A DNA stretch of 64,000 bases from contig JANRIG010000019.1 of NCBI GenBank assembly GCA_033765235.1, positions 143,313-207,312 of the forward strand. Direction: 5' to 3'. This DNA comes from Cytophagales bacterium (GTDB taxonomy: Bacteria; Bacteroidota; Bacteroidia; Cytophagales; UBA9547). The translations under genes and the position numbers were made by a program. Positions within the stretch are counted from its first letter, which is position 1. Each line of letters opens with the position of its first letter. Under the pieces are notes generated by a model. That model saw only the letters and a program-made list of their open reading frames with translations. It was not told the origin of the DNA and made no database searches. Shown in pieces: positions 1 to 12,133 of this stretch.

Positions 1-66
1 GATAACTCAGCAGAAAGCATGAAATATTACGATAATATATACTCTAATTCAATCAAAATCGCATGA
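1..66 (+). CDS. 3' end of an ORF entering from upstream of the window (hypothetical, element-associated)
   Basis: Frame 1 is open from the window edge (..DNSAESMKYYDNIYSNSIKIA). Stop TGA at 64-66 overlaps the next ATG at 63 (ATGA). Confidence 0.3.
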   Translation, partial: DNSAESMKYYDNIYSNSIKIA

Positions 67-299
67 AAGATAAAACTGAAATTGTTATTAATGGGCTTAT
101 TGATTTGCTTCAATTTGAGGCAAATTATTTACTACTCTTAGACAGGCTCATACACTCATGCCAAAACGACTTTGAAATAGATCAAAAGGTCAAGGCAAAT
201 GAAATTATGCAAAGTATAAATCATCGTTTTAACACGCTATTACATATAACAGCTAAGCGATTAGGCAAAGAGCAGGCGCAAAAACTTATGAGAATATGA
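63..299 (+). CDS. hypothetical protein (helical), phage-like element
   Basis: ORF track. ATGA overlap with the next ORF at 296-299. No family recognised. Confidence 0.5.
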   Translation: MKDKTEIVINGLIDLLQFEANYLLLLDRLIHSCQNDFEIDQKVKANEIMQSINHRFNTLLHITAKRLGKEQAQKLMRI

Positions 300-631
300 G
301 AGATATAAGTATTTTAGAATGTTACTTATTAGCCCGGCAATGCATGGACAAGTATATTGAAATATTGAAAATCATGAGCAAAATGTCAATATATGAGAGG
401 CAAGAGTCGAGCATCATTATTCGCAATGCAGAGCGTAAACTTAAGAGGATTGAAAAAATATTTCAAGATTGTGAGAAGCACATAGCCAATGTGAATGAGC
501 TCAAATCTGAGATTATGCAAGATTTAATAAATATTCGCAAAATATTGAATGAAGATTTTTCTCACCGTGGCAGGCGATTGGAAACCACTGCGGACAAGGT
601 GAGTTTTGGAGGTAGGCTGTGTAGCAATTGA
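296..631 (+). CDS. hypothetical coiled-coil-like protein, phage-like element
   Basis: ORF track. Translationally coupled to the previous ORF and followed by a strong hairpin plus T-run. Confidence 0.5.
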   Translation: MRDISILECYLLARQCMDKYIEILKIMSKMSIYERQESSIIIRNAERKLKRIEKIFQDCEKHIANVNELKSEIMQDLINIRKILNEDFSHRGRRLETTADKVSFGGRLCSN

Positions 632-662
632 GTAACATCGTTATTGCTACACCTACTTTTTT
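612..662 (+). terminator. Rho-independent terminator-like hairpin
   Basis: GTAGG(ctg)TGTAGCAAT, a 14-nt loop, ATTGCTACACCTAC, then a T-run at 656-662. Confidence 0.6.
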
Positions 663-684
663 ATTTATAGTGTAAATTATTTAT

Positions 685-945
685 ATGAAAACGATAGATT
701 TAAACAAAATAAAGAAAACCAAGAGCGGAAATAAGGTATATAATCTGAACATAGGCTATTTGACGAACGAAAGCCAATTAAATCCTCCAAATCATATTTT
801 GGGAGAAATTCCATGCAATGACTTAGGTGGCACCATTAAGACGCATTGGGATTTTGCCGGCAAAAATTACGCAAGCCCTGAATATGACTTGGTAATTGTA
901 CATAATGAAGAAAAACAAAAAGGAATGCAGTTAGAGCTTTTCTGA
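685..945 (+). CDS. hypothetical protein, phage-like element
   Basis: ORF track. No recognisable motif. Confidence 0.45.
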   Translation: MKTIDLNKIKKTKSGNKVYNLNIGYLTNESQLNPPNHILGEIPCNDLGGTIKTHWDFAGKNYASPEYDLVIVHNEEKQKGMQLELF

Positions 946-953
946 AAAAAACG

Positions 954-984
954 GTTGTCCCTTTGAAGTATAACAAGGGACAAC
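954..984. promoter_or_regulatory. Perfect 10-bp-stem hairpin abutting the rep gene; candidate replication-origin (nick) hairpin or minus-sense terminator
   Basis: GTTGTCCCTT (954-963), loop TGAAGTATAAC, AAGGGACAAC (975-984). An A7 run lies upstream and no T-run lies downstream on the + strand. Confidence 0.4.
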
Positions 985-1020
985 TTGACAAAGTCGCCTA
1001 AAAAACCTGATTTGAGCAAA

Positions 1021-2151
1021 ATGAGTGATAACTTCGATAAATATAACAATTCTAATATAACCATAGCAGTGGACTGGTTTGAGTTTTTTGGAAATACAAA
1101 ATGTTCTGTGCTATTAAATAATTACAAACCCGATGAAAAAAAGGAATTTCAAACTATTGACTATGGCTATAATCTTGTCGTGCTTAATATGGGCCATGGC
1201 ACCCCTATGTATAATGTACTGTATGAAATATATGTAGGAGGTGAGTTGTTTGCTTCTTTGCAAACACACCCCCGATTTGTAAAGGGAGACTTTAAAGATA
1301 ACAGCATAAGTTTTAAAATTGCCAACAACCAATTATATTCTGATAAATGGGTAGATAATATGGCAGAAATTATGGATTTGCTAAAATTGAAAATTAATAA
1401 CATTACAAGGCTTGATATATGCATAGACGGCTGTAATGGTGTGTTGAAATTTCTAAACAGCTTTGTTAAGCAAACACCAGAGAGTAAATCATATATCAAA
1501 ATGGGCAAAGCTACAATGAGTAGTTGCATGTTTGATAGCAATACTTTAAGCTATAGTTCATTTACGTTTGGCAAGAGAACAAGCGATAAGTATTTGATAG
1601 TCTATAATAAGACCAAAGAACTTGAACGGTCCAATAAAAAATATATTGAAAAATTTTGGCTGAAAAATGGCTTGATGGCAGAAATTGTATACCGTGTTGA
1701 GATACGATTAACCTCTAAAGTTTTGGCACAAATACAATTAACGGACATTAGCATGCTGCTCGACACGACTTATTTGGCGTCTTTATTTAGAACTGCGAGC
1801 GATAATTTTTTTCATTTCAAAAAAAATACAGGAGATACAAATAAAAGCCGTGAACAGGATGTGAATTTAATACCTTATGAATTGTTGTGCGGTGAACTAT
1901 TGGCAAAGTCGCAAAGACCTAAAACCACCCACAGATATAAGGCTAAGCTCACTATTCGTAAATGTCATTTTGACCTCAACGTAAAAGAAAATAGTATTGA
2001 TTCTGAAATAATGCTTGAGCGTGTGATACAGCGAAATATAGATGAATTTGATTTGCAAAAATGGTACCTTGCAAGTGTGCCTACTTGGCTTAAAGAGTAC
2101 AAAGTTCATAAATCTACAGGACATGTATATTCAACCGTAAACTATGAATAA
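1021..2151 (+). CDS. Rolling-circle replication initiator, Rep_trans-like (PF02486-type)
   Basis: The track ORF starts at TTG 985; I prefer the in-frame ATG at 1021. Blocks ITRLDICIDG, LIVYNKTKE and YRVEIRL resemble the RxDxxxD / YxK / RxExR blocks of the Rep_trans family as I recall them. Confidence 0.65.
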   Translation: MSDNFDKYNNSNITIAVDWFEFFGNTKCSVLLNNYKPDEKKEFQTIDYGYNLVVLNMGHGTPMYNVLYEIYVGGELFASLQTHPRFVKGDFKDNSISFKIANNQLYSDKWVDNMAEIMDLLKLKINNITRLDICIDGCNGVLKFLNSFVKQTPESKSYIKMGKATMSSCMFDSNTLSYSSFTFGKRTSDKYLIVYNKTKELERSNKKYIEKFWLKNGLMAEIVYRVEIRLTSKVLAQIQLTDISMLLDTTYLASLFRTASDNFFHFKKNTGDTNKSREQDVNLIPYELLCGELLAKSQRPKTTHRYKAKLTIRKCHFDLNVKENSIDSEIMLERVIQRNIDEFDLQKWYLASVPTWLKEYKVHKSTGHVYSTVNYE

Positions 2152-2356
2152 GCATTACCAACCCTGCGAAATTATACAGAAATTTCCTGCGTGTCCATTC
2201 ACGGAGGCGCAAATAGGAGTACTATTCTCTGCAGGTTTACTGAGAGGCGTGCGAAAACACAGGTACACGTTGATTGAGTTCGACTCAGTAATAGCCCTTG
2301 TAAAATTCAGAAATGAGAATATTGAGCGCAGTAAAACTAAAATAGATGTCTCTTAA
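2144..2356 (+). CDS. small protein, possibly excisionase/HTH_17-like DNA binding
   Basis: 70 aa, overlapping the rep stop by 8 nt. The FTEAQIGVLFSAGLLRGVRKHRYTLIEFDSV pattern loosely resembles MerR/excisionase-type HTH proteins. Confidence 0.3.
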   Translation: MNKHYQPCEIIQKFPACPFTEAQIGVLFSAGLLRGVRKHRYTLIEFDSVIALVKFRNENIERSKTKIDVS

Positions 2357-2663
2357 AATATTTCATATAAAACATTTACAGGATTATTTCAAAGCATTGC
2401 CTGAAATAAAATATGTGTGGCTATTTGGCTCGTATGCCAAGGGGCTTAATGATAAATATAGTGATATAGATTTACTTGTAGAATATGACATGTCTATAAA
2501 GCTAAGTATAAAAGAGCATAAGGACAGCATAGAAAAAATAACAAAAATAAAAACACAGATAGTACCACTAAACGGGTTAGATGTCTCATTCCTTAATAAA
2601 ATAACACCGCACGCCATATTAATATATACACACTCCCCTACACTACCCTTGCGCATGCTGTAA
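2346..2663 (+). CDS. Minimal nucleotidyltransferase (MNT/MntA-like, pol-beta fold)
   Basis: LFGSYAKGLNDKYSDIDLLV matches the GSxxxG...SDxDL signature. 105 aa. No adjacent HEPN-like partner. Confidence 0.7.
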   Translation: MSLKIFHIKHLQDYFKALPEIKYVWLFGSYAKGLNDKYSDIDLLVEYDMSIKLSIKEHKDSIEKITKIKTQIVPLNGLDVSFLNKITPHAILIYTHSPTLPLRML

Positions 2664-2692
2664 ATGTTTGTGATTTTTGCAGAGTTATTATC

Positions 2693-3574
2693 ATGGCATC
2701 ATGTGAGAGCACCGAAATAGTAAGCGCAAGTACTACGATTGATAAAACGATTGAGTACATTAAACGCTTCACTATAGCAGGCAGTCTAAATAGTGAGATT
2801 AAGGCAATAGCTTCAGAGTGCAGATATAGTAGCGACGTTCTTAAATGTGTGTTTGATGCTGTTTATACCCGTGTAGTATATTCACCTGACCCGCCTAATC
2901 GACAAGTCATCAAGGCCGTTCATTGCACTTTGTCCAACGGTATTGGTAACTGCACAGACTATAGCATATTAATAGGAGCGATACTAATAAACTTGCGCAT
3001 ACCATTTGCCTATAAAGTTGTAAGTTACAGCGAACCGGGGCAATATGAGCACATATACATTGTATCGCGACTTAATAACAAAGATATATATCTTGATTGT
3101 GTACTTGGGCAGCGACAAGATGGGAGCGATACTATTGCGAATAGACCTGAAGCAGGGTTATATAATAAAGAGGTAAAATATAAATACTATAAAATTTATC
3201 CAATGACTCAGCTTGAGATATTGCAAGGTGTGAGAGAATTGCAGACAGGAAATAAAAGGCCATTAAATAGAGTCGCTTATTTCAGGCGTGACAGAGATGT
3301 CATGAGTAGCTCTTTAGGGTTCTGTTTCTTAGGCATTGCCGGCGATTGCCGAGCACCTGAAGAGAGAATAGCAGATGAGATAAATAATAATAGTATAGAA
3401 GATACTTTAATAAACCCTCTTAAATTACTCGTTGCTGAGGCAAAGGGAAAAGGATTGGTAGAGGGGGGAGATTATATTAAAATTGGAGAAAATATTATAG
3501 GCAAAGACGTAATAGGATTGCTTAAAATTGCTGGTATAGGAGTCGGCGCATATATATTATGGAAAATGATATGA
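2693..3574 (+). CDS. Transglutaminase-like (Cys-His-Asp papain-fold) protein with C-terminal membrane anchor
   Basis: GNCTDYSILIGAILINLRIPF ... EHIYIV ... YLDCV fits the transglutaminase-core C/H/D spacing. The C-terminal hydrophobic segment is VIGLLKIAGIGVGAYILWKMI. Confidence 0.55.
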   Translation: MASCESTEIVSASTTIDKTIEYIKRFTIAGSLNSEIKAIASECRYSSDVLKCVFDAVYTRVVYSPDPPNRQVIKAVHCTLSNGIGNCTDYSILIGAILINLRIPFAYKVVSYSEPGQYEHIYIVSRLNNKDIYLDCVLGQRQDGSDTIANRPEAGLYNKEVKYKYYKIYPMTQLEILQGVRELQTGNKRPLNRVAYFRRDRDVMSSSLGFCFLGIAGDCRAPEERIADEINNNSIEDTLINPLKLLVAEAKGKGLVEGGDYIKIGENIIGKDVIGLLKIAGIGVGAYILWKMI

Positions 3575-3762
3575 AATTAGGAATTGCACCGGTCGTAATA
3601 CCTCTTATATATGCAGGCGGATTAGTTGCTTCGTCATTGATAGGTGCAATAGGAGGCGGAGGTGATGAACCTCCTCCCCCTCAACAAAAAGACTACACAC
3701 CGTACATTATAGGCGGTGCATTCATATTGGGTATTGTTTTAATAAAAACATTAAAAAAATGA
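3559..3762 (+). CDS. small membrane protein (2 TM-like segments)
   Basis: 67 aa with two hydrophobic stretches around a GGGGDEPPPPQQ linker. Overlaps both neighbours. Confidence 0.5.
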   Translation: MENDMKLGIAPVVIPLIYAGGLVASSLIGAIGGGGDEPPPPQQKDYTPYIIGGAFILGIVLIKTLKK

Positions 3763-4160
3763 TAAATAGATTCCAAAAATCGAGATTAGGGAATAGTGTA
3801 ACTCGCGAAACTATTACGCCTGGCGTGGTAATAACTTCTAATAGCAATAAAAATGCCCGATTATCTTCGCAAAGTAATTCACAAGGGTATAATGTAGAGG
3901 TATTCGACAAGGGGTGGGGAACAAACGGTAATGCAGTGGAAATTTTTTGGGGCGATGACGACAAATTATATGCCAAAAATAGAGATAACGGATATTATTA
4001 CTTCGATCAGGGCAAATGGATAGAAATATCCCCTGCAGCTTATTTGTCACGCAAACCCACAATAAAGAATAACCTAATACCAATAGCCCTAGGAGCTGTG
4101 GCGTTGATTTTGGGATATAAATTTGTAGTAAAACCAATGCTTAGCAAAAATAAAAAGTAG
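3759..4160 (+). CDS. hypothetical protein with C-terminal TM anchor
   Basis: 133 aa. ATGA overlap with the previous ORF. C-terminal segment LIPIALGAVALILGYKFVV. Confidence 0.5.
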   Translation: MINRFQKSRLGNSVTRETITPGVVITSNSNKNARLSSQSNSQGYNVEVFDKGWGTNGNAVEIFWGDDDKLYAKNRDNGYYYFDQGKWIEISPAAYLSRKPTIKNNLIPIALGAVALILGYKFVVKPMLSKNKK

Positions 4161-4367
4161 ATGATACGCTTAGGCTGTAACTGTAATAATCATTTGCAAG
4201 GTGTTGAGGATACTTTGAGTAACTTGATAAACCCTGTGGATGAGGTATTTGTAAAGCAGGAAGACGGCAGTAGAGCTTTAGTAGTTAAAGGCTCATTCGA
4301 CATGCAAAGTATTCTGATGCTTGGAGTAGTCATATTAGGTGTCGGTATAGTGATTAAAAAAGTATAA
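4161..4367 (+). CDS. small protein with C-terminal TM anchor
   Basis: 68 aa, abutting the previous stop. C-terminal segment ILMLGVVILGVGIVIKKV. Confidence 0.45.
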   Translation: MIRLGCNCNNHLQGVEDTLSNLINPVDEVFVKQEDGSRALVVKGSFDMQSILMLGVVILGVGIVIKKV

Positions 4368-4385
4368 AAATAAAATTTAAAAACC

Positions 4386-4775
4386 ATGGCAAAAAAGAAA
4401 GCAAAATTAAAATCAAAATTCAACTATAGTGGTGCTATAGATATGTTTATGGCGGGTGCTGGTGGCTATCTTGGTACGCAAGTAACCACTGTCATAGAGA
4501 AAAACGGAGCACTTAAAGATAACCAATCATTTGCGCCGGCAGTCACGGCGGCCATAGGGTTTGCGCTAAGTATGTTCATGCCTCAGATTGGCAAGGTTGC
4601 GGAAGGGATGACGACCGTGGCTATTACTGAGCTGCTCAGCAACATTGTAAGTACTGGTACGGCCGCGGCAGCAACGTCTACAAAACAAACTCAAGGAGCG
4701 TACATGGGTTATGTGCCTCGTTTAGTGCCTCAAGGCGAAAATGTAAAAACAATTAATAATACTGTAATTAAATAA
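4386..4775 (+). CDS. membrane protein (Lys-rich N-terminus, 2-3 hydrophobic segments)
   Basis: 129 aa, starting MAKKKAKLKSK, followed by Gly/Ala-rich hydrophobic stretches. Confidence 0.5.
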   Translation: MAKKKAKLKSKFNYSGAIDMFMAGAGGYLGTQVTTVIEKNGALKDNQSFAPAVTAAIGFALSMFMPQIGKVAEGMTTVAITELLSNIVSTGTAAAATSTKQTQGAYMGYVPRLVPQGENVKTINNTVIK

Positions 4776-4791
4776 TTAAACTCAAAAAAAA

Positions 4792-5334
4792 ATGATAAAC
4801 AATAGCAATCTATTTGAGACGTTAATACTCAATCTCACCCAACCGGATGCCATACTCAATGCTTTGGCTGCGTATATCAAAAAGCAAAATCTTACTTACG
4901 ACAATGCTAAAGTTTTTGCAAAATATGTAGAAGGAAGTAACCGTGTCGTGGTATCTCTGACAAACCAAACTTGGTTTCAAGACGTCACATTCCCTCAAAG
5001 TGAGCACTTTATCGTATTGGCACTGCGTGTGTTGTCTGGGGCGAATGCTACGTTAGCAGCCTCGGCATGGTTGCCTGGGGTTGCGGATGCGCTCACCATA
5101 AATGGTAGTATATCTCTGACAAATAACGGTGTAGTATTTTTGAAAAATTTACCCCTAACCGTATTCCCATTGAGCACCAATAATGCTGATATAGAGGCTG
5201 GTTTCTTTATATTGGAAAAACCCATATTATGGCAGGCACAAACAAGTCTGAGTATTTTGGCTACATGGGCTACTGCTCCGAGTACAGCAAACCAAAACTT
5301 GAGATTTGAGCTTTGGGGATATAAACTTATATAG
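4792..5334 (+). CDS. hypothetical beta-rich protein (candidate capsid component)
   Basis: 180 aa. Composition is beta-strand-like (alternating hydrophobic residues, T/S/N-rich) with no TM segment. First of three consecutive such ORFs. Confidence 0.5.
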   Translation: MINNSNLFETLILNLTQPDAILNALAAYIKKQNLTYDNAKVFAKYVEGSNRVVVSLTNQTWFQDVTFPQSEHFIVLALRVLSGANATLAASAWLPGVADALTINGSISLTNNGVVFLKNLPLTVFPLSTNNADIEAGFFILEKPILWQAQTSLSILATWATAPSTANQNLRFELWGYKLI

Positions 5335-5361
5335 TCTATTCCACATAAATAATTAAAAAAA

Positions 5362-5718
5362 ATGGAAATAATAGACAACGGACAGCTGTTAATTCAGAGC
5401 ATTAACACCACAGCTACAGCAAGCGTGACCACTACTGGGCAAAGCACTATAATCACTAATAGAGGTAATGTAAAGAAAGTGACCATAGAGCCCGGTACAG
5501 ATACCGTAGCAGATTTGGCAGTATGTACAATAACGATACTGATAAATTCAGTAGAGGTAATACAAACAGTGCCACTGTCACTATTTAGCCGTACTACTCA
5601 GGCAATCCAAAAAATGTTCAAAGTCAACTGGGCAGAGGGTAGTACAATCGGTTTCAGAATTGTGAATGGCTCAGGCAATAACATACCTGTGGCAATAATA
5701 CTTTACTTTGATAACTAA
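5362..5718 (+). CDS. hypothetical beta-rich protein (candidate capsid/vertex component)
   Basis: 118 aa, T/V/I-rich, no TM segment. Confidence 0.5.
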   Translation: MEIIDNGQLLIQSINTTATASVTTTGQSTIITNRGNVKKVTIEPGTDTVADLAVCTITILINSVEVIQTVPLSLFSRTTQAIQKMFKVNWAEGSTIGFRIVNGSGNNIPVAIILYFDN

Positions 5719-5981
5719 TGAAAGGGCTTAAGTCGCAACCTATTGTAATTACTGAAGATGGAATATTTGACGTACAAAAATACGGTGAGATTATAAGCGT
5801 GTCTTTCAAAAATCAAGGGACGAGTAATGTAACGCTCTGGGAGGTATATAATGTGCCTGCAGGCAGCCCGTTACTTGTGTTAGAAGGTGAGATAGGGTTT
5901 ATTCGCAAAGACGTAGTACCTGTAACATTTGCTACAGGCGGAGTGAATAATTTAGTAGTGTTTATAACAACAGAGGCGTAA
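5718..5981 (+). CDS. hypothetical beta-rich protein
   Basis: 87 aa. The start shares nucleotide 5718 with the previous stop (TAATG). Confidence 0.5.
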   Translation: MKGLKSQPIVITEDGIFDVQKYGEIISVSFKNQGTSNVTLWEVYNVPAGSPLLVLEGEIGFIRKDVVPVTFATGGVNNLVVFITTEA

Positions 5982-6701
5982 ATGTATTTAAGTAAAGAAA
6001 AAATATTGCAATTATGTACTGAAAGCAAATTTAACTGGTGCAGGGCTTACCTTATATCGGACAAGAATGATTGCGTATTTTTTTACTCTATCGACAAACA
6101 CAAAAATGAAACACTCATTGACCGGCTAAATAGCTTCTTTGAATATTGCAATGAGGCAGTAAGTATGAAATTTAAAGTAAACCCTACAGACCATGACACA
6201 CAAGCAGTAGTGTATGAGTATAAGCCAGCCTTTGCAGCAAGTCACGCGCATGAGGCGGTGGCATTGCATGGTGTAGTAGATGAAGCAAAATTGCGCAAAA
6301 GCATTATGGTTGAGGTAAAAGCAGAATTTGAGCGCAAAGAAGAAAGAGAAAAATTAGAAAGTGCATGGGATGAAATAAAAGAAGAGAGAGAAAGGCTTAA
6401 AAATTGGGCAAACAAATTATCAATAGTGGCCGAGAGCGTGCTTATGAATTTGGTAGCCAAAAGCCCAATGTTGCAAGGGCTTTTGGCTGGCAATATGGCT
6501 CCCGCTCCTGTGCTGCAGGGGGTTCCTCAAACAGAAAACGAGGAACAAAATAGCATGACTAATGAAGAAGTGCAGCGCATTAATAATGCAGTAAACAAAA
6601 TATTAATGCATTTTACAGTCCCGGAATTTGAAGCAGCAGCCGAGTTCCTTACCAAAAATGTAGATATGTCCAAAAATTTCATAAAACCATTAATAAAATA
6701 A
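5982..6701 (+). CDS. hypothetical protein with central charged coiled-coil (scaffold/assembly-like)
   Basis: 239 aa, abutting the previous stop. Contains the charged segment EAKLRKSIMVEVKAEFERKEEREKLESAWDEIKEERERLKNW. Confidence 0.5.
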   Translation: MYLSKEKILQLCTESKFNWCRAYLISDKNDCVFFYSIDKHKNETLIDRLNSFFEYCNEAVSMKFKVNPTDHDTQAVVYEYKPAFAASHAHEAVALHGVVDEAKLRKSIMVEVKAEFERKEEREKLESAWDEIKEERERLKNWANKLSIVAESVLMNLVAKSPMLQGLLAGNMAPAPVLQGVPQTENEEQNSMTNEEVQRINNAVNKILMHFTVPEFEAAAEFLTKNVDMSKNFIKPLIK

Positions 6702-6704
6702 AAA

Positions 6705-6920
6705 ATGGCTACCAAAAAAAGTAAAACAAAAAAAAGAGCAACAAGTGGTAATTCTTTGAAAAAATTTGTCACTTCTGTTTATAAAAATGCAAAAGTAAGA
6801 AAAATAAAGTCTCAAATGGCAAAAATTGAACGCGCCTACAAAGCAGCGGTGAATGCTGCAAAACGTAGCTATAAAATATCAGCGAAAAAAAAGACGGTTA
6901 AAAAACGCAGAGCAGCATGA
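6705..6920 (+). CDS. highly basic Lys/Arg-rich small protein (nucleic-acid-binding candidate)
   Basis: 71 aa: MATKKSKTKKRATSG...KKKTVKKRRAA. Roughly one third of residues are K or R. Confidence 0.5.
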   Translation: MATKKSKTKKRATSGNSLKKFVTSVYKNAKVRKIKSQMAKIERAYKAAVNAAKRSYKISAKKKTVKKRRAA

Positions 6921-6921
6921 T

Positions 6922-7365
6922 ATGGGTTTGTTTTGGACGGTATCACCTACTATAAGCGATGCAGATATAGTAGCTGGGTTTGAGAAAGATATTGATAATT
7001 GGCTCTGTAGCCAATGGCGCACATATTATGAGCGTATAAAAATAAAATACGGACAAGCTAAAGCCTTAGACGTAATAAGAATTGATAGTGAGAGAATAGG
7101 GTGGTTTGCAAAATTGCATAATTGTAAATATGACTGCAATTTTATTGACTACTTCAAAAAAGAAGGGTTGGAGGGAGGAAATTTGATAAGTAAAGTCTAT
7201 TGTGCGGGCACTGATGTAGCAGGTGCTATAGGCGATACAGCAAGTGCTGTGGGCAATGTGGGCGACGTGCTAAGTGCATTAACGGATAAAAAAATACTCC
7301 TAAGTGGAGTACTAATAGCAGGTATAACATTTATATATATTAATTATGGCAAACAAAAAAGATAA
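6922..7365 (+). CDS. hypothetical protein with C-terminal TM anchor
   Basis: The track ORF starts at 6853 inside the previous gene; I prefer ATG 6922, just after that gene's stop. C-terminal segment LLSGVLIAGITFIYINY. Confidence 0.45.
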   Translation: MGLFWTVSPTISDADIVAGFEKDIDNWLCSQWRTYYERIKIKYGQAKALDVIRIDSERIGWFAKLHNCKYDCNFIDYFKKEGLEGGNLISKVYCAGTDVAGAIGDTASAVGNVGDVLSALTDKKILLSGVLIAGITFIYINYGKQKR

Positions 7366-7624
7366 CTCAGGCGGTGGAATTGATACCACTACAATACTCA
7401 TACTCGGAGCAGTAGGAGTTGGTGCATATTTCCTCATCACACAAATGGGCAAAAATAATACAGGAGCTGCAGCACCACGCGATCCCATTAGTCAAATATT
7501 GGACAGCAGCGCAGGCATAATTAATTCTATAACTAGTGGGCTGCAGCTGTTTATAAAGCCAAAGAACAGCGGAAATACAGGTGCTGCAGATTATACACCC
7601 GGCTATGGTGTGCCGATAACATAA
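7346..7624 (+). CDS. small membrane protein (1 TM)
   Basis: 92 aa with TM-like segment TTTILILGAVGVGAYFLITQ. Confidence 0.45.
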   Translation: MANKKDNSGGGIDTTTILILGAVGVGAYFLITQMGKNNTGAAAPRDPISQILDSSAGIINSITSGLQLFIKPKNSGNTGAADYTPGYGVPIT

Positions 7625-7635
7625 ATATATTAGAA

Positions 7636-7929
7636 ATGGTTGTAGAAATAATAACAATTTTAGGACTTGGATTATTGGCAAATGCCAAAAACAAAAAAGA
7701 TAGTAGCACTACCACTACTACTACTGTACAGCCGGATATTGCCAAAATAAATACATACGAAAAAAATTGGGAAAATGTATATATGAACTATGCTATGGCT
7801 AACTACCCCGCAAGTGGTATGAGTGCCTTGCACAATCGTAAAGCAGAATTGAGTAAAATAACACAAACAGTAGATACTGTGAGTGAATTACAAGCATTAA
7901 ATGAACTAATAGATAGATACGAATCATGA
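7636..7929 (+). CDS. small protein with N-terminal TM segment
   Basis: 97 aa, starting MVVEIITILGLGLLANA, followed by a poly-Thr tract. Confidence 0.45.
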   Translation: MVVEIITILGLGLLANAKNKKDSSTTTTTTVQPDIAKINTYEKNWENVYMNYAMANYPASGMSALHNRKAELSKITQTVDTVSELQALNELIDRYES

Positions 7930-8096
7930 AAAAAATATTAAGGAATTGGAAAACAAGCCTTAGCGGCTTAGCAAGTGTAATCTTAGGTATAATTAGTATT
8001 GCAGGCGGCGATGTAGGCACTGGCATAGCTACCATAGTGAGCGGTGTAGGTTTAGTGGCTGCTAAAGACTCAGACGTAACAGGTACAGCGCAATAA
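7926..8096 (+). CDS. holin-like small membrane protein (below ORF-track size cut-off)
   Basis: My own translation gives 56 aa: MKKILRNWKTSLSGLASVILGIISIAGGDVGTGIATIVSGVGLVAAKDSDVTGTAQ. ATGA overlap upstream and TAATG overlap with the lysin gene downstream. Confidence 0.45.
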   Translation: MKKILRNWKTSLSGLASVILGIISIAGGDVGTGIATIVSGVGLVAAKDSDVTGTAQ

Positions 8097-8698
8097 TGGC
8101 AAATTTTGATATTGCAATTGTAGAAATTTTTAAGAATGAGGGAGGCTACCAAAATCATCCAAGTGATAGAGGTAATTATAACTCATTAGGTGAAAATGTA
8201 GGCACAAATTACGGCATAAGCGCAAAAACGTATGAGGGGTATATAAACAGACCGCCTACAGCCGATGATATGCGCAATATGACTATCTCAACGGCTAAGA
8301 CTATATACAAACGGAGCTATTGGGATGCTTACAAATTGGGCAGCATAAATGACCAATTCATTGCCTCGCACATCTTGGATTTGTTTGTGAACCACAGCCC
8401 TAAAGCAGCTGCAGAAATTGCACAGAAAGCTATCGTAAAAACTCCTCCTTTTTTCACCAAAGTAGATGGCATATTTGGGCCAAAAACAATAGCCACAATA
8501 AACCAGATAGCAAGTAATGGTAAGGCAAGTGAGCTTAACACTAATATAGTAAACGAGCGTAAATTATATTATAATAGTTTGGGAAATTTGAGCTTTTTGG
8601 ACGGCTGGACAAATAGAGCTCATTCATGGGGAGAGTACGCAAATATATTAGTACCGGTAATACCAACTATTGCCATGTTTTTTTTTTGTCATACATAA
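8096..8698 (+). CDS. GH108-family N-acetylmuramidase-like lysin with PG_binding_3-like domain
   Basis: FKNEGGYQNHPSDRG...NYGIS is the EGGY block. It also carries YWD, VDGIFGPKTIATINQ and GWTNRAHSW. The C-terminal tail is hydrophobic. Confidence 0.8.
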   Translation: MANFDIAIVEIFKNEGGYQNHPSDRGNYNSLGENVGTNYGISAKTYEGYINRPPTADDMRNMTISTAKTIYKRSYWDAYKLGSINDQFIASHILDLFVNHSPKAAAEIAQKAIVKTPPFFTKVDGIFGPKTIATINQIASNGKASELNTNIVNERKLYYNSLGNLSFLDGWTNRAHSWGEYANILVPVIPTIAMFFFCHT

Positions 8699-8707
8699 CT
8701 TATAAAT

Positions 8708-9208
8708 ATGCCGGGAGTAGGAGTATTTGAGATTGAATATAAGCGCAATGTTTACGTAGATGCTAATGCATTCATACCGGCGCAATCATCACCCGCGGTG
8801 CCGGGTACATCAGAAGATGGTTCTTTCGGAGTTAACTGGGACTACATGGGCTATGAGCCCTTAGTCAATAGCGCAGCATGGTGCAAGGTCAAAATGAACG
8901 AAACGGCGCAGCAATTATATATAAAATTGTTCTACGAGACGGAGGGTTTGGCAGGTGATGTTTACTTGCTATTTAAGAATATCTTTGTAGCTCCTGATGG
9001 AGGATTTGGACAAATCCCTCAGGTGACTGAGGTGCCTCTTCTAGACATGAGTCCTAACGCCTCTGTACAAAGCGTGAGCTTTGTTGTAAGCATTGCACAA
9101 AGCATCAGCGACAATGGTTTATTAGTATTCGCAGTAGAGCGTTTTGGCACCTACGCGGCAGATACTTACCCCGGAGTATTCAAATTTTTAGGACTTGAAA
9201 TAAAATAA
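8708..9208 (+). CDS. hypothetical beta-rich protein (spike/receptor-binding candidate)
   Basis: 166 aa, no TM segment, no family recognised. Confidence 0.45.
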   Translation: MPGVGVFEIEYKRNVYVDANAFIPAQSSPAVPGTSEDGSFGVNWDYMGYEPLVNSAAWCKVKMNETAQQLYIKLFYETEGLAGDVYLLFKNIFVAPDGGFGQIPQVTEVPLLDMSPNASVQSVSFVVSIAQSISDNGLLVFAVERFGTYAADTYPGVFKFLGLEIK

Positions 9209-9210
9209 AT

Positions 9211-9435
9211 ATGAGCATTATAGTGCCTCTTTGTGTAATGTTTTTTTCTGCTGTTTTTTTGCCATTGCTTTATAACAGCTTCAAAATATATTTCGAAATG
9301 CCTATTTTAAAAAAAAACATAGAAGACATACAAACTGAGGTCGATATAATAAAAAATGATGTATCATTTATTCGTGAAAATATCGCCGAAATAAAAACAG
9401 CGTTGCGCTTTATAGATGATACAGAGAGCCCGTAG
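9211..9435 (+). CDS. small protein, N-terminal TM plus coiled-coil
   Basis: 74 aa, starting MSIIVPLCVMFFSAVFLPLLY, followed by a heptad-like segment. Confidence 0.45.
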   Translation: MSIIVPLCVMFFSAVFLPLLYNSFKIYFEMPILKKNIEDIQTEVDIIKNDVSFIRENIAEIKTALRFIDDTESP

Positions 9436-10177
9436 ATATACTAATATCAAAGAAGCAATATTTTTTAGCAACCTCGTGCGCCTTGCGGGCGGATATGCGC
9501 TATCTCAGGTGGAGTATTACGGCATATCCTATGCCATTGACAGATTTAGGCGAAATGGAATTTTTCAAAAACTATTGGCATACTACCCACTACTTACTCC
9601 TGAAGGACCTGGAGCATCAAAAAATATAATATCTGCAAGTTACGCATTATCATTTACAGGTCCGTTTACCTATGGTAATGGCGTGGCAGGCGATGGGCTC
9701 ACAGCTTATGCAAGCGGAGGAATAACTCCGGCACTCTTACTGTCGGTTAATAATACCACACTTGGTTTTTTTACAAAAGCCACAACTTATGAAGCCTGTA
9801 ACGACATGGGTATGCATTTTTTTGACATAAGTGCATGGGGGATATTTGGAGCGACAACGCTAAATAGCGCGTACAGTAATCCCAATTCCTTTAACATTGC
9901 AATTGCATCGCCTCAGGGGAGTAATGTGTGTACTGTAGATGGTGCCAATGTGTATGGAGTTAAAGACGGAATAACTGTATATACTGCCGCCGCGGCGGCA
10001 GGATCATTTGTGCCAGATGAATTATTTATTTTTGGCTATAACTTCTTTGGCGCTCCGTCGCAACTTAGCAGCCGTACATATCTGTCCTACTACATAGGTA
10101 ATGGACTCACCGAAGCGCAAGCAAAAAAGATCAATAATATTGAAACCACATATAACAAAACAATAGGCAGATTATGA
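9416..10177 (+). CDS. hypothetical protein, possibly concanavalin/LamG-like jelly-roll (adhesin or capsid candidate)
   Basis: 253 aa. The C-terminal pattern LFIFGYNFFG...SRTYLSYYIGNGLTEAQAKKI resembles the end of LamG-type lectin-fold domains. Confidence 0.4.
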   Translation: MIQRARRYTNIKEAIFFSNLVRLAGGYALSQVEYYGISYAIDRFRRNGIFQKLLAYYPLLTPEGPGASKNIISASYALSFTGPFTYGNGVAGDGLTAYASGGITPALLLSVNNTTLGFFTKATTYEACNDMGMHFFDISAWGIFGATTLNSAYSNPNSFNIAIASPQGSNVCTVDGANVYGVKDGITVYTAAAAAGSFVPDELFIFGYNFFGAPSQLSSRTYLSYYIGNGLTEAQAKKINNIETTYNKTIGRL

Positions 10178-10452
10178 CAGTACTCGTAGATAATACAGGA
10201 AAAATAATAAAATATGGTGTAAGCGATGAAATTAGCAGCACTAAATTAAAAGCACTTGGTCTTACAAAAGTAGTGTACAATGATAATTTCAAAATGCCTC
10301 AGTATGATGGGGTTAAGTTTGTTGAAACGTATATAGCACCTGCGCCAATGGTTAATTACTTTGTGGTTTTGCTAAAAGAGATAATTAAAGAAACAAAAAT
10401 AGAAAACAGCGTAATATCAGATGCATTAGCAAAAATTGAAGGCAAAAAGTAA
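10174..10452 (+). CDS. hypothetical protein
   Basis: 92 aa. ATGA overlap with the previous ORF. Confidence 0.45.
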   Translation: MTVLVDNTGKIIKYGVSDEISSTKLKALGLTKVVYNDNFKMPQYDGVKFVETYIAPAPMVNYFVVLLKEIIKETKIENSVISDALAKIEGKK

Positions 10453-10529
10453 AAAAAAACTGCCAATTGAAAGCCTTTTTTTTTATTAGAAAAATATGTA
10501 TAATTGCGACTTACGCAAATACATATATC

Positions 10530-10853
10530 ATGAAAAAAACAATCTTAATATTAATTCTATTGCTGCTAAGTTGTAGCAAAAAAGAAGAAGAAATAATTAA
10601 ACCACGCTGTGAGACAGAAAAATGGGGAAGCCTTAAAATACTCAATGTTAATTCGAGTAATCCTTATTATATTTATCTTGATGGCACCTATAGAGCCACT
10701 GTAGATGGCAGAGGTACAATAACTCTTATAGAGTTAAGCACAGGCACACATACGTTATATTTAGTTCAAAAGTCAGGGTATGTATTGGCGGCTACTACCT
10801 ACTCAAGTAGTATTACTATTGCCCAGTGTAGCACAAAAGAGTATCAGTTTTAA
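10530..10853 (+). CDS. lipoprotein (last ORF of the element)
   Basis: I prefer ATG 10530. MKKTILILILLLLSCSKKEE is a lipobox-like signal with Cys. Confidence 0.55.
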   Translation: MKKTILILILLLLSCSKKEEEIIKPRCETEKWGSLKILNVNSSNPYYIYLDGTYRATVDGRGTITLIELSTGTHTLYLVQKSGYVLAATTYSSSITIAQCSTKEYQF

Positions 10854-10997
10854 GCTACCTTTAAAAGAAAAAAAAGAGTTTCCACTCACTGCATGGCAGT
10901 GATATATATGCATGAAGTAAATGACAAAATATTATTCTGCAATATCTAAAATCGAGTTGAAATTAATCAAATTTTATTAGGTTTTCCCTTCGTGTAG

Positions 10998-11060
10998 GCG
11001 CATAACAGATGAATTTATGAAGTTTTAATTTTATAAATTTATAGTTATGCGCATTTTTTT
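10998..11060 (+). terminator. Long interrupted hairpin plus T7; terminator-like structure at the right edge of the element
   Basis: GCGCATAAC (10998-11006) pairs with GTTATGCGC (11044-11052). An inner pair AATTTAT/ATAAATT also forms. A then TTTTTTT follows (11054-11060). Confidence 0.55.
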
Positions 11061-11123
11061 GCCCAAAATGGGGTATTTTTTATAAAAAAATCATTCAATA
11101 GATAAATAACAGATATTTTTTTT

Positions 11124-11154
11124 AAAAAAATGGCTCCATTAGAGCCCTTTTTTT
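11124..11154. terminator. Bidirectional terminator-like hairpin
   Basis: A7, then GGCTC, loop CATTA, GAGCC, C, then T7. Confidence 0.5.
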
Positions 11155-11358
11155 ATCCTAAAAATGCATTAATTACGCTGCTAATACACTTAATGTGCAC
11201 AAATTTAAGTCACAAAAATTGTTTTAATCAAATATATTTCTATTATTTGCGACATGAACGCTGCAATTTTTATAAAAAAATATTTCAAAACGGGTTAACA
11301 GCCTGTTTGTCAATATTATAGTGCTATACGTATTATAAATTATACAACAAATAATATG

Positions 11359-11395: not shown

Positions 11396-12133
11396 ATGAA
11401 TAACAAATTCCATATCATACCGGCTATAGATATCATAGGAGGTAAATGTGTACGGCTCACCAAAGGAGATTATAATAATATGACGCTGTACAACGAGCAC
11501 CCGCTCGAGGTGGCATTAATGTTTGAAGATGCAGGTATTACAAAACTGCACCTTGTAGACCTTGATGGTGCCAAAGCTAAAAAAATAATAAACTATAAAG
11601 TGCTTGAAACATTAGCCACAAAAACGCATCTGCAAATTGACTTTGGTGGAGGCATACAATCTGATGAAGATATCAATATTGCTTTTGAATGTGGTGCACA
11701 GCAAATCACAGGTGGATCTGTAGCCGTGAAAAACAAAGATTTATTTAGTTCATGGTTAAGCAAATACAGTGCTGAAAAAATAATACTAGGTGCTGATGTC
11801 ATAAGTCATAAAATAGCCATACACGGTTGGCAAAATACATCTGACATTGATTTGGATGATTTTATTTCCGAATATTTAAAAATAGGTATAAAATATACTA
11901 TAAGCACAGATGTGTCTAAAGATGGTATGCTTACAGGTCCTTCATTTGAAATGTATAGCGATATGAAACAAAAATTCCCTTCACTCTGCATAATAGCCAG
12001 TGGTGGAGTAAGTAATATAGAAGATGTGATAAAACTTTCGGAACTGAATATTTATGGAGTAGTGATAGGCAAGGCTTTATATGAAGGTAAGATAAAAATT
12101 GGCGATATAAGTAGCATTAATAAATACCTATAG
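11396..12133 (+). CDS. hisA: 1-(5-phosphoribosyl)-5-[(5-phosphoribosylamino)methylideneamino]imidazole-4-carboxamide isomerase
   Basis: IIPAIDIIGGKCVRLTKGDY, HLVDLDGA, GGGI and ASGGV are typical HisA blocks. Confidence 0.9.
   Translation: MNNKFHIIPAIDIIGGKCVRLTKGDYNNMTLYNEHPLEVALMFEDAGITKLHLVDLDGAKAKKIINYKVLETLATKTHLQIDFGGGIQSDEDINIAFECGAQQITGGSVAVKNKDLFSSWLSKYSAEKIILGADVISHKIAIHGWQNTSDIDLDDFISEYLKIGIKYTISTDVSKDGMLTGPSFEMYSDMKQKFPSLCIIASGGVSNIEDVIKLSELNIYGVVIGKALYEGKIKIGDISSINKYL

Follow-up and report, generated by a model that had tools for sequence, protein, structure and literature searches.

Within a Cytophagales chromosome (GenBank assembly GCA_033765235.1, contig JANRIG010000019.1, positions 143,313 to 207,312 of the forward strand; this 64,000-nt stretch is referred to here as the window), we identified an 11,878-bp mobile element that is located at a dif-like site, encodes no integrase of its own, and is probably the provirus of a small, tailless, temperate phage belonging to an undescribed family. 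Its only recognisable capsid-type protein is a predicted single jelly roll, rather than the double jelly roll found in FLiP or PM2. Virions, an internal membrane and the nature of the packaged DNA are inferred, not demonstrated, in this interpretation.

Results

Gene content and organization

An earlier note, made from the sequence alone, had described positions 1-11060 as a compact, membrane-protein-rich, Rep_trans-encoding array of about 29 ORFs on a single strand, and this observation was confirmed on re-analysis, although the gene count and the boundaries had to be corrected. An ORF listing and the gene calls on an identical public contig gave 26 complete + strand genes in 63-10853 and the 3' end of a 27th at 1-66, so that the count is 26-27 rather than 29. 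The genes cover 97% of the region with a median length of 106 aa, the largest product is 388 aa, and no - strand ORF there exceeds 127 aa. All the sites of stop-start coupling listed in the note are real (ATGA at 63, 296, 3759, 7926 and 10174; TAATG at 5718 and 8096). The four motifs it had placed were also recovered by profile searches, with the Rep_trans match above the Pfam cut-off, the Polbeta/NTP_transf_2 (MntA-like) and GH108 plus PG_binding_3 domains found at E 4e-14 and E 1.2e-20, and the transglutaminase-like core only weak and below the cut-off, although that protein is conserved in seven relatives. A hydrophobicity scan found TM-like segments in about 10 products, mostly C-terminal, and no [AG]xxxxGK[ST] motif occurred in any product, in agreement with the note's own scan for GxxxxGK[ST], so that no Walker-A ATPase is present. 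From 11.4 kb onward, the window holds mixed-strand housekeeping genes of ordinary size, in strong contrast to the element. The features are collected in Table 1, where L007 is a Logan contig identical to the element and L008, L009, L011, L012, L013 and L015 are contigs of relatives.

Table 1. Features of the element, in window coordinates.
Position	Strand	Feature	Basis
1..66	+	3' end of the first gene of the element (179 aa); the gene starts 473 nt left of the window and the element's left end lies 544 nt left of it	L007, gene 72-611; homologue in L009
63..945	+	Three small genes (63-299, 296-631, 685-945) with no TM segment; presumed early or regulatory genes	No family hits
985..2151	+	Rolling-circle replication initiator of the Rep_trans family	Pfam PF02486 E 5.4e-11; phrog_20614 E 1.3e-17; 22-24% identity to the Reps of Omtje/phi12:2, and a match to phiCjT23
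2144..2356	+	Small conserved protein that follows Rep	Homologues in L008, L009 and L013
2346..2663	+	Orphan MntA-like minimal nucleotidyltransferase; accessory gene, absent from relatives	Polbeta E 4.3e-14; NCBIfam MntA_antitoxin E 1.5e-11, below the cut-off
2693..3574	+	Transglutaminase-like (Cys-His-Asp core) protein with a hydrophobic C-terminus; core gene of the family	Transglut_core E 0.007; homologues in all relatives, E 1e-31 to 1e-50
3571..4367	+	Three small membrane proteins (3571-3762, 3759-4160, 4161-4367)	TM-like segments
4386..4775	+	Conserved Gly/Ala-rich protein with a basic N-terminus	Homologues in L008, L009, L011, L013 and L015
4792..5334	+	Predicted single jelly-roll protein with two N-terminal helices; best-conserved gene and candidate capsid protein	AF2 pLDDT 93.8, pTM 0.87; Foldseek jelly-roll hits, many of them capsid proteins; family of 199 clusters
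5362..5718	+	All-beta protein, probable paralogue of 4792-5334 and candidate second capsid protein	hhalign probability 42.5%, E 2.6e-4 over 89 collinear columns; conserved in all relatives
5718..5981	+	Small conserved beta-rich protein	Homologues in L008, L012 and L015, more weakly in L009; the alignment also includes a positional counterpart from L011
5982..6701	+	Conserved 239-aa protein with a Glu/Lys-rich middle part that looks coiled-coil by eye; candidate assembly or scaffold factor	Homologues in L008, L009, L011 and L012
6705..6920	+	Very basic 71-aa protein (26 K+R, 1 D+E); candidate DNA-condensing protein	Counterparts of 63-89 aa with 19-36 K+R at the same position in L008, L009, L011, L012 and L015
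6922..7365	+	Conserved Cys-containing protein with a C-terminal TM anchor	Homologues E 1e-31 to 1e-40; TM at 125-143
7346..8096	+	Three small genes (7346-7624, 7636-7929, 7926-8096), two with clear TM segments; candidate holin or membrane proteins	Hydrophobicity scan
8096..8698	+	GH108 muramidase with a PG_binding_3 domain and a C-terminal hydrophobic tail	Pfam E 1.2e-20; phrog_315 endolysin E 6.7e-35; present in every relative
8708..9208	+	Beta-rich acidic protein whose N-terminus (MPGVGVFE) resembles the start of the variable spike-like genes of most relatives; candidate vertex or receptor-binding protein	N-terminal motif comparison by eye; the relatives' versions carry K1-lyase_C or GDSL domains
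9211..10452	+	Variable right-end genes (9211-9435 with an N-terminal TM, 9416-10177, 10174-10452)	Not conserved in relatives; 9416-10177 matches a hypothetical protein of Microcystis phage Mwe-JY13, E 2e-5
10530..10853	+	Small lipoprotein-like product (start MKKTILILILLLLSC)	Gene call on L007; weak BiPBP_C hit; weak homologue in L011
10854..11322	.	AT-rich non-coding end of the element with terminator-like hairpins at 11060-11075 and 11132-11146	3 terminator-like sites against 0.3 expected; no Rfam match
11323..11352	-	attR, a dif-like site; the 28-mer at 11323-11350 reads TTGTTGTATAA-TTTATA-ATACGTATAGC on the - strand; the 19-bp direct repeat at 11334-11352 is identical to the element's left end	Comparison with L007 and with the bacterial dif consensus

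Boundaries, mobility and the dif-like attachment site

The element is larger than had been reported in the note, running from 544 nt left of the window to 11352. L007, which was seen in six samples, is identical to the window over 11,352 nt and starts and ends with the same 19 bp, and the window diverges from it exactly after the repeat. Logan contigs are built by k=31 assembly, and with such an assembly a break of this kind implies that each end has at least two sequence contexts, and hence that the element is mobile, although no extrachromosomal reads were seen directly. It could be argued that the element is a decayed, immobile prophage remnant, since there is no direct evidence of activity and the host is known only as a MAG. 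However, all 27 genes are intact and tightly coupled, every core gene of the family is present, both repeats are identical and the contig breaks exactly at the repeats in six samples, so we consider this reading very unlikely. Relatives also point to free circles, in that L011 assembles as a 12.2-kb circle whose ends overlap by 15 bp and rebuild an intact GH108 gene, while the ends of L009 split the homologue of 6922-7365.

None of the 27 products hits a recombinase family, and the absence of an integrase, which the note had claimed, can now be explained by the attachment site, where the 19-bp repeat forms the central hexamer and XerC arm of a dif-like site. The attR scores 22/28 against the bacterial dif consensus, a value that 3% of random 150-nt stretches of the element also reach, and the left host flank, where the host's own XerD arm should lie, is outside the data. 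The relative L008 has a near-perfect dif (26/28), with XerD arm TTATGTTAAAT, on one side and a 21/28 hybrid on the other. The half-site TATWAATTATANNACAA occurs only at these four junctions and in the non-coding region of Omtje, among about 170 kb scanned. On the other hand, the circular relatives L009, L011, L012, L013 and L015 have no dif-like site scoring 24 or more, and no empty site could be found for the element itself, because the nearest hisA in reference genomes is only 52-59% identical. Precedents for integration of this type exist in the phiCjT23-like prophages (PMC9719478) and in Bacteroidetes microvirus proviruses (PMC3091885).

Relationships to phages and plasmids

The nearest relatives of the Rep are the small lipid-containing ssDNA flavophages Omtje/phi12:2 and phiCjT23, with matches to 13 phage records as against 1 plasmid, of 4 kb. 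The FLiP Rep did not match, although the genome of FLiP is in both sets searched. Only the Rep links the element to Obscuriviridae and phiCjT23, and the structural genes belong to an undescribed lineage. They gave no PHROG hits, and when 24 products (all but the Rep, lysin and nucleotidyltransferase) were compared by tblastn to the 50,697 phage records of INPHARED, only 9416-10177 found a match. A tblastn search of ten structural products against the 72,556 plasmids of PLSDB matched only the transglutaminase-like protein, which has a relative on a Persicobacter plasmid. No relatives were found in IMG/VR, although the pattern search was narrow. Family members lie on contigs of 9-15 kb, except for the two integrated copies.

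These results bear on the possibility that the block is an integrative rolling-circle plasmid or other non-viral mobile element, which would use Xer to integrate and would encode envelope or surface proteins for the cell instead of a virion. Rep_trans is a classic plasmid initiator of the pT181 type, L011 carries Rep_1, another plasmid-type Rep, no capsid match is specific, and jelly rolls also occur in pilins. Nevertheless, besides the plasmid searches above, no mobilisation or conjugation genes were found in the profile searches, and the jelly-roll protein has no signal peptide or TM segment. Moreover, the structural module is conserved across relatives while the replication genes are swapped. 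The lysin, a small, very basic protein of DNA-condensing type that is conserved in position, and a variable gene of depolymerase type are retained while the Rep is exchanged. The variable gene lies at a fixed position, carries K1-lyase_C (E 2e-23) or GDSL esterase domains, and in most versions starts with a similar N-terminal peptide. This pattern points to a virion module rather than a plasmid backbone, and the plasmid reading therefore seems unlikely.

A predicted single jelly roll as candidate capsid protein

The best-conserved gene, 4792-5334, belongs to an unannotated family and folds confidently, in the one model made, as a single jelly roll preceded by two helices. Its fold matches include many capsid proteins, the FLiP penton and SPV1, but they are generic, with TM-scores of at most 0.5 and E-values of about 1e-3 in the PDB, and they also include non-viral jelly rolls such as Ena pilins, nucleoplasmin, PHM and the furin P domain. 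The paralogy with the neighbouring 5362-5718 is probable, but rests on the modest hhalign probability given in Table 1. No conserved beta-rich product is long enough for a double jelly roll, and no product resembles the capsid proteins of FLiP, phiCjT23 or Omtje by phmmer or hhalign.

Alternatively, the element could be a capsid-less, vesicle-type (pleomorphic) virus or a satellite, whose DNA would leave the cell in a membrane vesicle studded with the element's membrane and spike proteins, with the jelly-roll proteins serving as spike or matrix parts and not as a shell. The presence of about ten membrane proteins with no recognisable major capsid protein or ATPase would fit this view, the BFVD hits include a protein of a pleomorphic haloarchaeal virus, and Obscuriviridae, the nearest Rep relatives, still have no realm assigned (PMC12451628). 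However, the best-conserved gene encodes a compact soluble jelly roll with a probable paralogue next to it, an arrangement typical of icosahedral shells, and the nearest Rep relatives are described as having icosahedral capsids over a lipid membrane (phiCjT23, FLiP) or an internal lipid membrane (phi18:4) (PMC9719478, PMC11946311). The element also carries its own lysin, which argues against budding. We consider this alternative as unlikely as the plasmid one.

Discussion

The interpretation we favour, with reasonable though not full confidence, is that the block is the provirus of a small, tailless, probably membrane-containing temperate phage of an undescribed family with a Cytophagales host. 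The interpretation offered in the earlier note, a provirus or provirus fragment of FLiP/PM2 architecture from a Bacteroidota host and possibly an undescribed lineage, is thus only partly supported: the element is integrated with defined ends in a Bacteroidota chromosome, lacks an integrase, and has structural genes of an undescribed lineage, but the FLiP/PM2 architecture was not found.

Integration has been shown up to the level of sequence, whereas its mechanism and all the later steps are inferred. The attachment site mimics the XerC arm and central hexamer of the host dif site, and we infer that the host XerC/XerD recombinases insert and excise the genome. As inferred from the gene, the excised circle would then replicate by the rolling-circle route, started by the Rep_trans protein. 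It can be hypothesized that the conserved module from the transglutaminase-like protein to the lysin would build the particle, in which one or two single jelly-roll proteins (4792-5334 and 5362-5718) would form the shell and about ten small membrane proteins would sit in a lipid layer. The very basic 71-aa protein would neutralise the DNA, so that no packaging ATPase is needed, and a variable protein with a conserved N-terminal peptide (8708-9208 here) would act as the host-recognition spike. Lysis would be brought about by the GH108 muramidase with small membrane proteins nearby. No particle or membrane was seen directly, and virion formation, an internal membrane and ssDNA all remain inference.

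Among known systems, phiCjT23 and the phiCjT23-like prophages of Flavobacterium, relatives of Finnlakeviridae (PMC9719478), share with the element a Bacteroidota host, a related Rep_trans initiator placed near the start of the genome (tblastn E 4e-10), the lack of an integrase and a packaging ATPase, prophages flanked by dif motifs, and many small membrane proteins with co-oriented genes. However, those genomes are 6-8.4 kb against 11.9 kb here, and their major capsid protein is a minimal double jelly roll encoded right after Rep, while here that position holds a nucleotidyltransferase and a transglutaminase-like protein and nothing resembles their capsid protein or spike. Obscuriviridae (Cellulophaga phages Omtje, phi12:2 and phi18:4; ICTV 2025) have the closest Rep (22-24% identity over 78%, E 1e-15; phmmer 1.9e-22), a one-strand gene array with a peptidoglycan hydrolase and a reported lipid-containing virion (PMC11946311), and Omtje carries a dif-like site whose XerC arm and central hexamer match those seen here. 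Their genomes, though, are 6.5 kb, they are described as lytic, and none of their eight structural proteins resembles any product of the element.

Finnlakevirus FLiP and Corticovirus PM2, the models of the earlier note, are comparable in genome size range (9-10 kb), tailless lipid-containing design, a lytic enzyme and rolling-circle replication, and FLiP lacks a recognised ATPase. Against this, there is no sequence match to any FLiP product, Rep included, no match in INPHARED, which is expected to include PM2, no double jelly-roll candidate, and no counterpart of the packaging ATPase of PM2. With integrative mobile elements exploiting Xer, such as CTXphi-type phages and the Bacteroidetes microvirus proviruses (PMC3091885), the element shares the lack of its own recombinase, short direct repeats (19 bp here, 13 bp in BMV1) and a dif-like site at the junction in an intergenic location, although the virion type and all genes differ and the Xer dependence here is inferred from sequence. 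Lastly, viruses with two single jelly-roll capsid proteins (Sphaerolipoviridae-like) and SPV1 show no sequence similarity to the element in our searches, and these viruses, apart from SPV1, encode a packaging ATPase and have larger dsDNA genomes. What they have in common with it are adjacent genes for small jelly-roll proteins and a membrane-protein-rich genome, and the capsid protein of SPV1 is among the fold hits of the predicted jelly roll (TM 0.39).

Gene content of the element

The observation of a compact one-strand array of small genes, made in an earlier note from the sequence alone, held up in our analysis. The 26 complete genes and the tail of a 27th found in this part of the window cover 97% of the sequence and have a median length of 106 aa, while no opposite-strand ORF exceeds 127 aa, and all seven of the stop-start overlaps named in the note are present. 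The family searches placed four products (Table), of which the Rep_trans match lies above the cut-off and the transglutaminase-like match below it. About ten products have TM-like segments, mostly at the C-terminus, and no product has a Walker A motif. The nucleotidyltransferase resembles an MntA-type antitoxin but has no HEPN toxin gene beside it and is absent from the relatives, and it may be a counter-defence cargo gene. To the right of 11.4 kb the window changes to mixed-strand, normal-sized housekeeping genes, namely hisA, glycosyltransferases, DapA, PlsX and Mdh. The product encoded next to hisA has three tandem 11-aa repeats (…ESKNDLQKL…) followed by a C-terminal hydrophobic segment, with no family hit above threshold. 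No tRNA was found in the window and no Rfam match in the element.

Table. Coordinates of the element, its genes and related sites
Sequence	Position	Strand	Feature	Search result
Window	-544 to 11352		Span identical to the 11,897-bp Logan contig, without a single mismatch
Window	1-10853	+	26 complete genes and the tail of a 27th
Window	63-299	+	78-aa product, found on the Logan contig
Window	985-2151	+	Replication initiator	Rep_trans, PF02486, E 5.4e-11
Window	2346-2663	+	MntA-like nucleotidyltransferase	Polbeta/NTP_transf_2; MntA-like by NCBIfam
Window	2693-3574	+	Transglutaminase-like protein	Transglut_core, E 0.007
Window	4386-4775	+	Conserved core protein
Window	4792-5334	+	Predicted single jelly-roll protein, candidate capsid protein	No PHROG match
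Window	5362-5718	+	Possible second jelly-roll protein	hhalign to 4792-5334
Window	5718-5981	+	Conserved core protein
Window	5982-6701	+	Conserved core protein
Window	6922-7365	+	Conserved core protein
Window	8096-8698	+	Lysin	GH108 + PG_binding_3; phrog_315 endolysin
Window	8708-9208	+	Putative spike protein
Window	9416-10177	+	Hypothetical protein; residues 37-251 match	PP438406.1 2571-3245, 27% identity, E 2e-5
Window	11323-11350	-	attR, dif-like site	22/28
Window	11334-11352		19-bp repeat, 44 nt before hisA
Window	11396-12133		hisA
Window	12184-12636		150-aa product next to hisA
L008 (integrated relative)	2848-2925 and 15393-15470		Similar stretches at the two junctions, with an exact 24-mer at 2880 and 15425
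L008	3492-4670		Replication gene	HTH protein
L011 (circular relative)	2760-4430		Replication gene	Rep_1
L002 (Cellulophaga phage Omtje_1)	1121-1148	-	Intergenic dif-like 28-mer	24/28
L032 (Persicobacter sp. JZB09 plasmid CP012854.1)	9905-12010		ORF of about 700 aa	Transglutaminase-like N-terminal part of 2693-3574, E 1e-8

Extent and ends

The product of 63-299 led us to a Logan contig that was seen in six samples (DRR729084 and five others) and that begins and ends with the same 19 bp, TATAAATTATACAACAAAT. This sequence occurs once in the window, and the window and the contig diverge at the first base after it. The element is therefore 11,878 bp, with one more gene (179 aa) to the left of the window, and the coordinates in the note were too short at both ends. 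The break in the contig is also informative. Logan contigs are assembled with 31-mers, and a lone integrated copy with 19-bp repeats would not break there, so that ends falling exactly on the outer edges of the repeat imply at least two sequence contexts at each end in those samples, be it a circle junction plus the integrated form or several insertion contexts. In either case the element moves, although this is inferred from contig ends rather than from reads. The alternative of a dead remnant was considered less likely.

Integration at a dif-like site

Among the 26 window products and the first gene there was no integrase, recombinase or transposase family hit, and the precomputed Pfam hits for all 27 genes show the same. 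Read on the - strand, attR is TTGTTGTATAA|TTTATA|ATACGTATAGC, which was scored against the bacterial dif consensus DBBBCSBATAATRTAYATTATGTHAANT (Hendrickson and Lawrence 2007, cited in PMC3091885); of 300 random 150-nt stretches of the element, 3% reach the same score. The 19-bp repeat corresponds to the central hexamer plus the XerC arm plus 2 nt. In the Xer model, the attP of the excised circle would read …GCTATACGTAT-TATAAATTATACAACAAAT-TGCATGTTCG…, and a XerD arm close to ATTTAACATAA on the + strand would be predicted within the 30 nt left of the left repeat.

The relative L008 is integrated between katG and TPR/peptidase genes of another Bacteroidota genome, whose katG is 84-89% identical to those of Chitinophagales and similar groups. 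Its left junction, TTGTCCTATAA|TTAATA|TTATGTTAAAT, scores 26/28 and has a XerD arm identical to that of E. coli dif, while its right junction is a 21/28 hybrid with a different XerD arm. This is the pattern expected of Xer recombination between a host dif and a phage site that shares the XerC arm and centre. Similarity between the two L008 junctions runs about 60 bp beyond the dif-like site, which may be a leftover of an earlier insertion at the same dif, as in arrays of Xer-dependent elements. The half-site TATWAATTATANNACAA occurs only at these four junctions and once in the non-coding region of phage Omtje, among about 170 kb scanned. The Omtje 28-mer, TTGTCCTATAATTTATATTATATACAAC, has a XerC arm equal to that of the L008 host dif and a central hexamer equal to the one in this window; Omtje is described as lytic, so it may be able to integrate through Xer. 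We considered whether the 19-bp repeat might be the Rep nick site rather than a recombination site, but rejected this because L008 has the same half-site but a different replication protein, and its left copy is a near-perfect dif. The phiCjT23 supplementary files hold no dif sequences as text. An empty site was sought through hisA, which stands alone here rather than in a his operon, but its best matches among the representative genomes of 185,579 species are only 52-59% identical, so that no comparison was possible and the host lineage is poorly represented in reference genomes.

A family of small replicons

The product of 4792-5334 is annotated only as a hypothetical protein of a 'Cytophagales bacterium' MAG, on a contig of 214,711 bp (locus tag NW207_04785). 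An exhaustive profile search finds 199 clusters (50% identity level) at E ≤ 1e-3, most of them 175-215 aa long. None of 145 members matches a PHROG, and those with names are called 'hypothetical'. One protein from this search (P0144, 999 aa) has 12 separate stretches matching the family profile, the best-scoring one covering a C-terminal segment (profile positions 133-173), and it looks like a repeat protein built from a piece of the fold. Apart from the two integrated copies, the contigs of the family do not exceed about 15 kb, and the longer ones are 9-15 kb. Other routes to relatives gave nothing or little: a nucleotide search of 1-8000 against phages had no match, single-protein Rep scans of GTDB representative genomes and IMG/VR returned no relatives, and a scan with one alignment of the jelly-roll family (A1) found nothing in IMG/VR and one weak 1.7-kb contig in JGI metagenomes. 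The 'Charybdis elements' (bioRxiv 10.1101/2025.08.03.668216) are unrelated 4.6-kb archaeal elements.

Six relatives were read (L008, L009, L011, L012, L013 and L015). The ends of L011 (12,255 bp) overlap by 15 bp and rebuild an intact GH108 gene across the junction, giving a circle of 12,240 bp, whereas the ends of L009 split the homologue of 6922-7365, so that it is probably a circle too. A core set of genes is shared, in conserved order and by most or all relatives: the transglutaminase-like protein, 4386-4775, 4792-5334, 5362-5718, 5718-5981, 5982-6701, a very basic protein of 63-89 aa with 19-36 K+R, 6922-7365 and the GH108 lysin. The replication genes, on the other hand, are not shared. 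Rep_trans is present here and in L009 and L015, L011 has Rep_1, L008 has an HTH protein, and L012 and L013 have nothing recognisable. L013 also has a block of ten opposite-strand genes, one with a weak match to a D12-class methyltransferase.

The capsid candidate

A first AlphaFold model of 4792-5334, from 4 sequences, was mediocre (pLDDT 61.6) and was superseded by one from a 145-sequence alignment, with pLDDT 93.8 and pTM 0.87, which has two N-terminal helices followed by an eight-stranded sandwich. Foldseek returns jelly rolls only. These include the capsid proteins of XSV, CCMV, SPMV, PLRV and SPV1, the KHP30/40 cement protein, PBCV-1 and SGIV capsid components and the FLiP penton, but also the non-viral jelly rolls of PHM, the furin P domain and Ena pilin. 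TM-scores are at most 0.5 and PDB E-values are about 1e-3, and the best BFVD hit has E 1e-7 and no name. The fold is therefore established, but a capsid role is not. The product of the next gene, 5362-5718, aligns collinearly with it over 89 columns at an hhalign probability of only 42.5% (E 2.6e-4), which is a hint of a duplicated jelly roll. A vesicle-type virus or satellite was among the alternatives considered and judged less likely.

Comparisons of the conserved families with every FLiP, phiCjT23 and Omtje structural protein, by phmmer and hhalign, gave nothing, and profile searches of PDB sequences with the family alignments A1, A2 and A4 gave nothing below E 0.08. The conserved beta-rich products are 87-180 aa, and none is long enough for a double jelly roll.

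Other virus-type features

After the 5718-5981 homologue, relatives carry a large variable gene. In L015 it ends in a K1-lyase_C domain (E 2.3e-23), while in L009 the position holds two large genes, the second with a GDSL esterase domain (E 1.2e-11). Most of these genes start with a similar short N-terminal peptide (MPGGLGVFQ, MGLGVFQ, MPGGGGIYQ), and by eye the same peptide heads 8708-9208 here (MPGVGVFE). A fixed anchor with an exchangeable distal domain is what would be expected of a phage spike or fibre. The match of 9416-10177 to a hypothetical protein of Microcystis phage Mwe-JY13 was the only hit when 24 products were searched by tblastn against the 50,697 phage records of INPHARED; by eye its C-terminal part looks like a lectin or LamG-type domain, but Pfam gave no hit.

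The Rep matches 13 phage records, all of them small ssDNA flavophages apart from one unannotated 10-kb faecal contig. Among the 72,556 plasmids of PLSDB it matches a single 4-kb record, and of the structural set only the transglutaminase-like protein finds a relative there, on a 49-kb Cytophagales plasmid where no other gene of the family lies nearby. Rolling-circle plasmids of the pT181/pUB110 type are small replicons made of Rep, origins and a few cargo genes, with relatives among plasmids. The 27 genes here, which include a lysin and a conserved structural-type module, do not fit that description, and a non-viral integrative plasmid is the less likely explanation.

Interpretation and comparison with known systems

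The best-supported reading is that the element is the provirus of a temperate, tailless, probably membrane-containing phage of a new family, inserted by host Xer recombinases at a dif-like site. The analysis itself establishes the gene content, the boundaries, the repeat, the dif-like sites, a circular relative, the jelly-roll fold, the size of the family and the lack of described relatives. By contrast, the dependence of integration and excision on XerC/XerD, excision in the six samples, the capsid role of the jelly-roll proteins, the membrane, the DNA-condensing role of the basic protein, the spike role of 8708-9208 and the entry or lysis roles of the two putative wall-active enzymes are all inferred. 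With regard to the packaged DNA, co-oriented genes, a rolling-circle Rep and the missing ATPase favour ssDNA over dsDNA, but some relatives have opposite-strand blocks, and L013 has the weak methyltransferase match.

A further-reaching, and on present evidence unlikely, possibility is that these 12-15-kb elements are a new family-or-higher lineage of membrane-containing icosahedral phages of Bacteroidota. In this view the shell would be built from two paralogous single jelly-roll proteins, and the genome would be packaged without an ATPase, with the help of a small basic protein. At least the Rep_trans/Rep_1 members would carry circular ssDNA, which we believe would be the largest icosahedral ssDNA phage genomes known. 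Such a lineage would link the two-single-jelly-roll capsid design with the FLiP-type ssDNA lifestyle and would persist by Xer-mediated lysogeny.

Small tailless lipid-containing phages of Bacteroidota are known from only a handful of isolates (FLiP, phiCjT23 and Obscuriviridae), and they matter for ideas about how jelly-roll capsids arose. The element described here is one member of a family of about 200 protein clusters that standard virus detection misses, with no PHROG match and, in our pattern-based scans, no IMG/VR match. Its structural module is, as far as our searches go, unrelated to any described phage, its capsid candidate is a single, possibly duplicated, jelly roll, and its replication genes are interchangeable. 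With exact boundaries and a dif-type attachment site in hand, whether this dark-matter element makes particles, and of what kind, becomes a testable question.

The interpretation offered in the note was only partly borne out. The provirus idea, the host phylum (Bacteroidota), the absent integrase and the 'undescribed lineage' all hold, but the specific FLiP/PM2 (double jelly-roll) architecture is not supported. FLiP shares nothing detectable with this element, the Rep included, although the Rep does match that of phiCjT23 (tblastn E 4e-10). For the circular ssDNA genome in an icosahedral capsid over an internal membrane that characterises the Finnlakeviridae and phiCjT23-like phages, the sequence offers only indirect hints, namely the many TM proteins and the circular relative L011. 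Of the Corticoviridae, which are characterised by a double jelly-roll P2, a packaging ATPase P9 and a homologous gene set, INPHARED gave no hit with the 24 products. In comparison with Obscuriviridae, which share core structural proteins and a genome of about 6.5 kb, only Rep matches and the element is 11.9 kb. Of the two adjacent single jelly-roll capsid genes that characterise the two-single-jelly-roll viruses (Sphaerolipoviridae-like), the element offers one confident jelly roll, to which the neighbour is linked only by hhalign. The FtsK/HerA-type packaging ATPase of these viruses has no counterpart here, as neither a Walker A motif nor an ATPase family hit was found among the products. With the Xer-exploiting integrative elements (IMEX), the element shares the lack of a recombinase of its own and a dif-like site at the junction with a direct repeat. 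Integrase-less, dif-flanked proviruses are already described in this phylum for phiCjT23-like phages (PMC9719478) and for microviruses (PMC3091885), and the present case adds to the evidence that Xer hijacking is the usual lysogeny route for small phages in this phylum.
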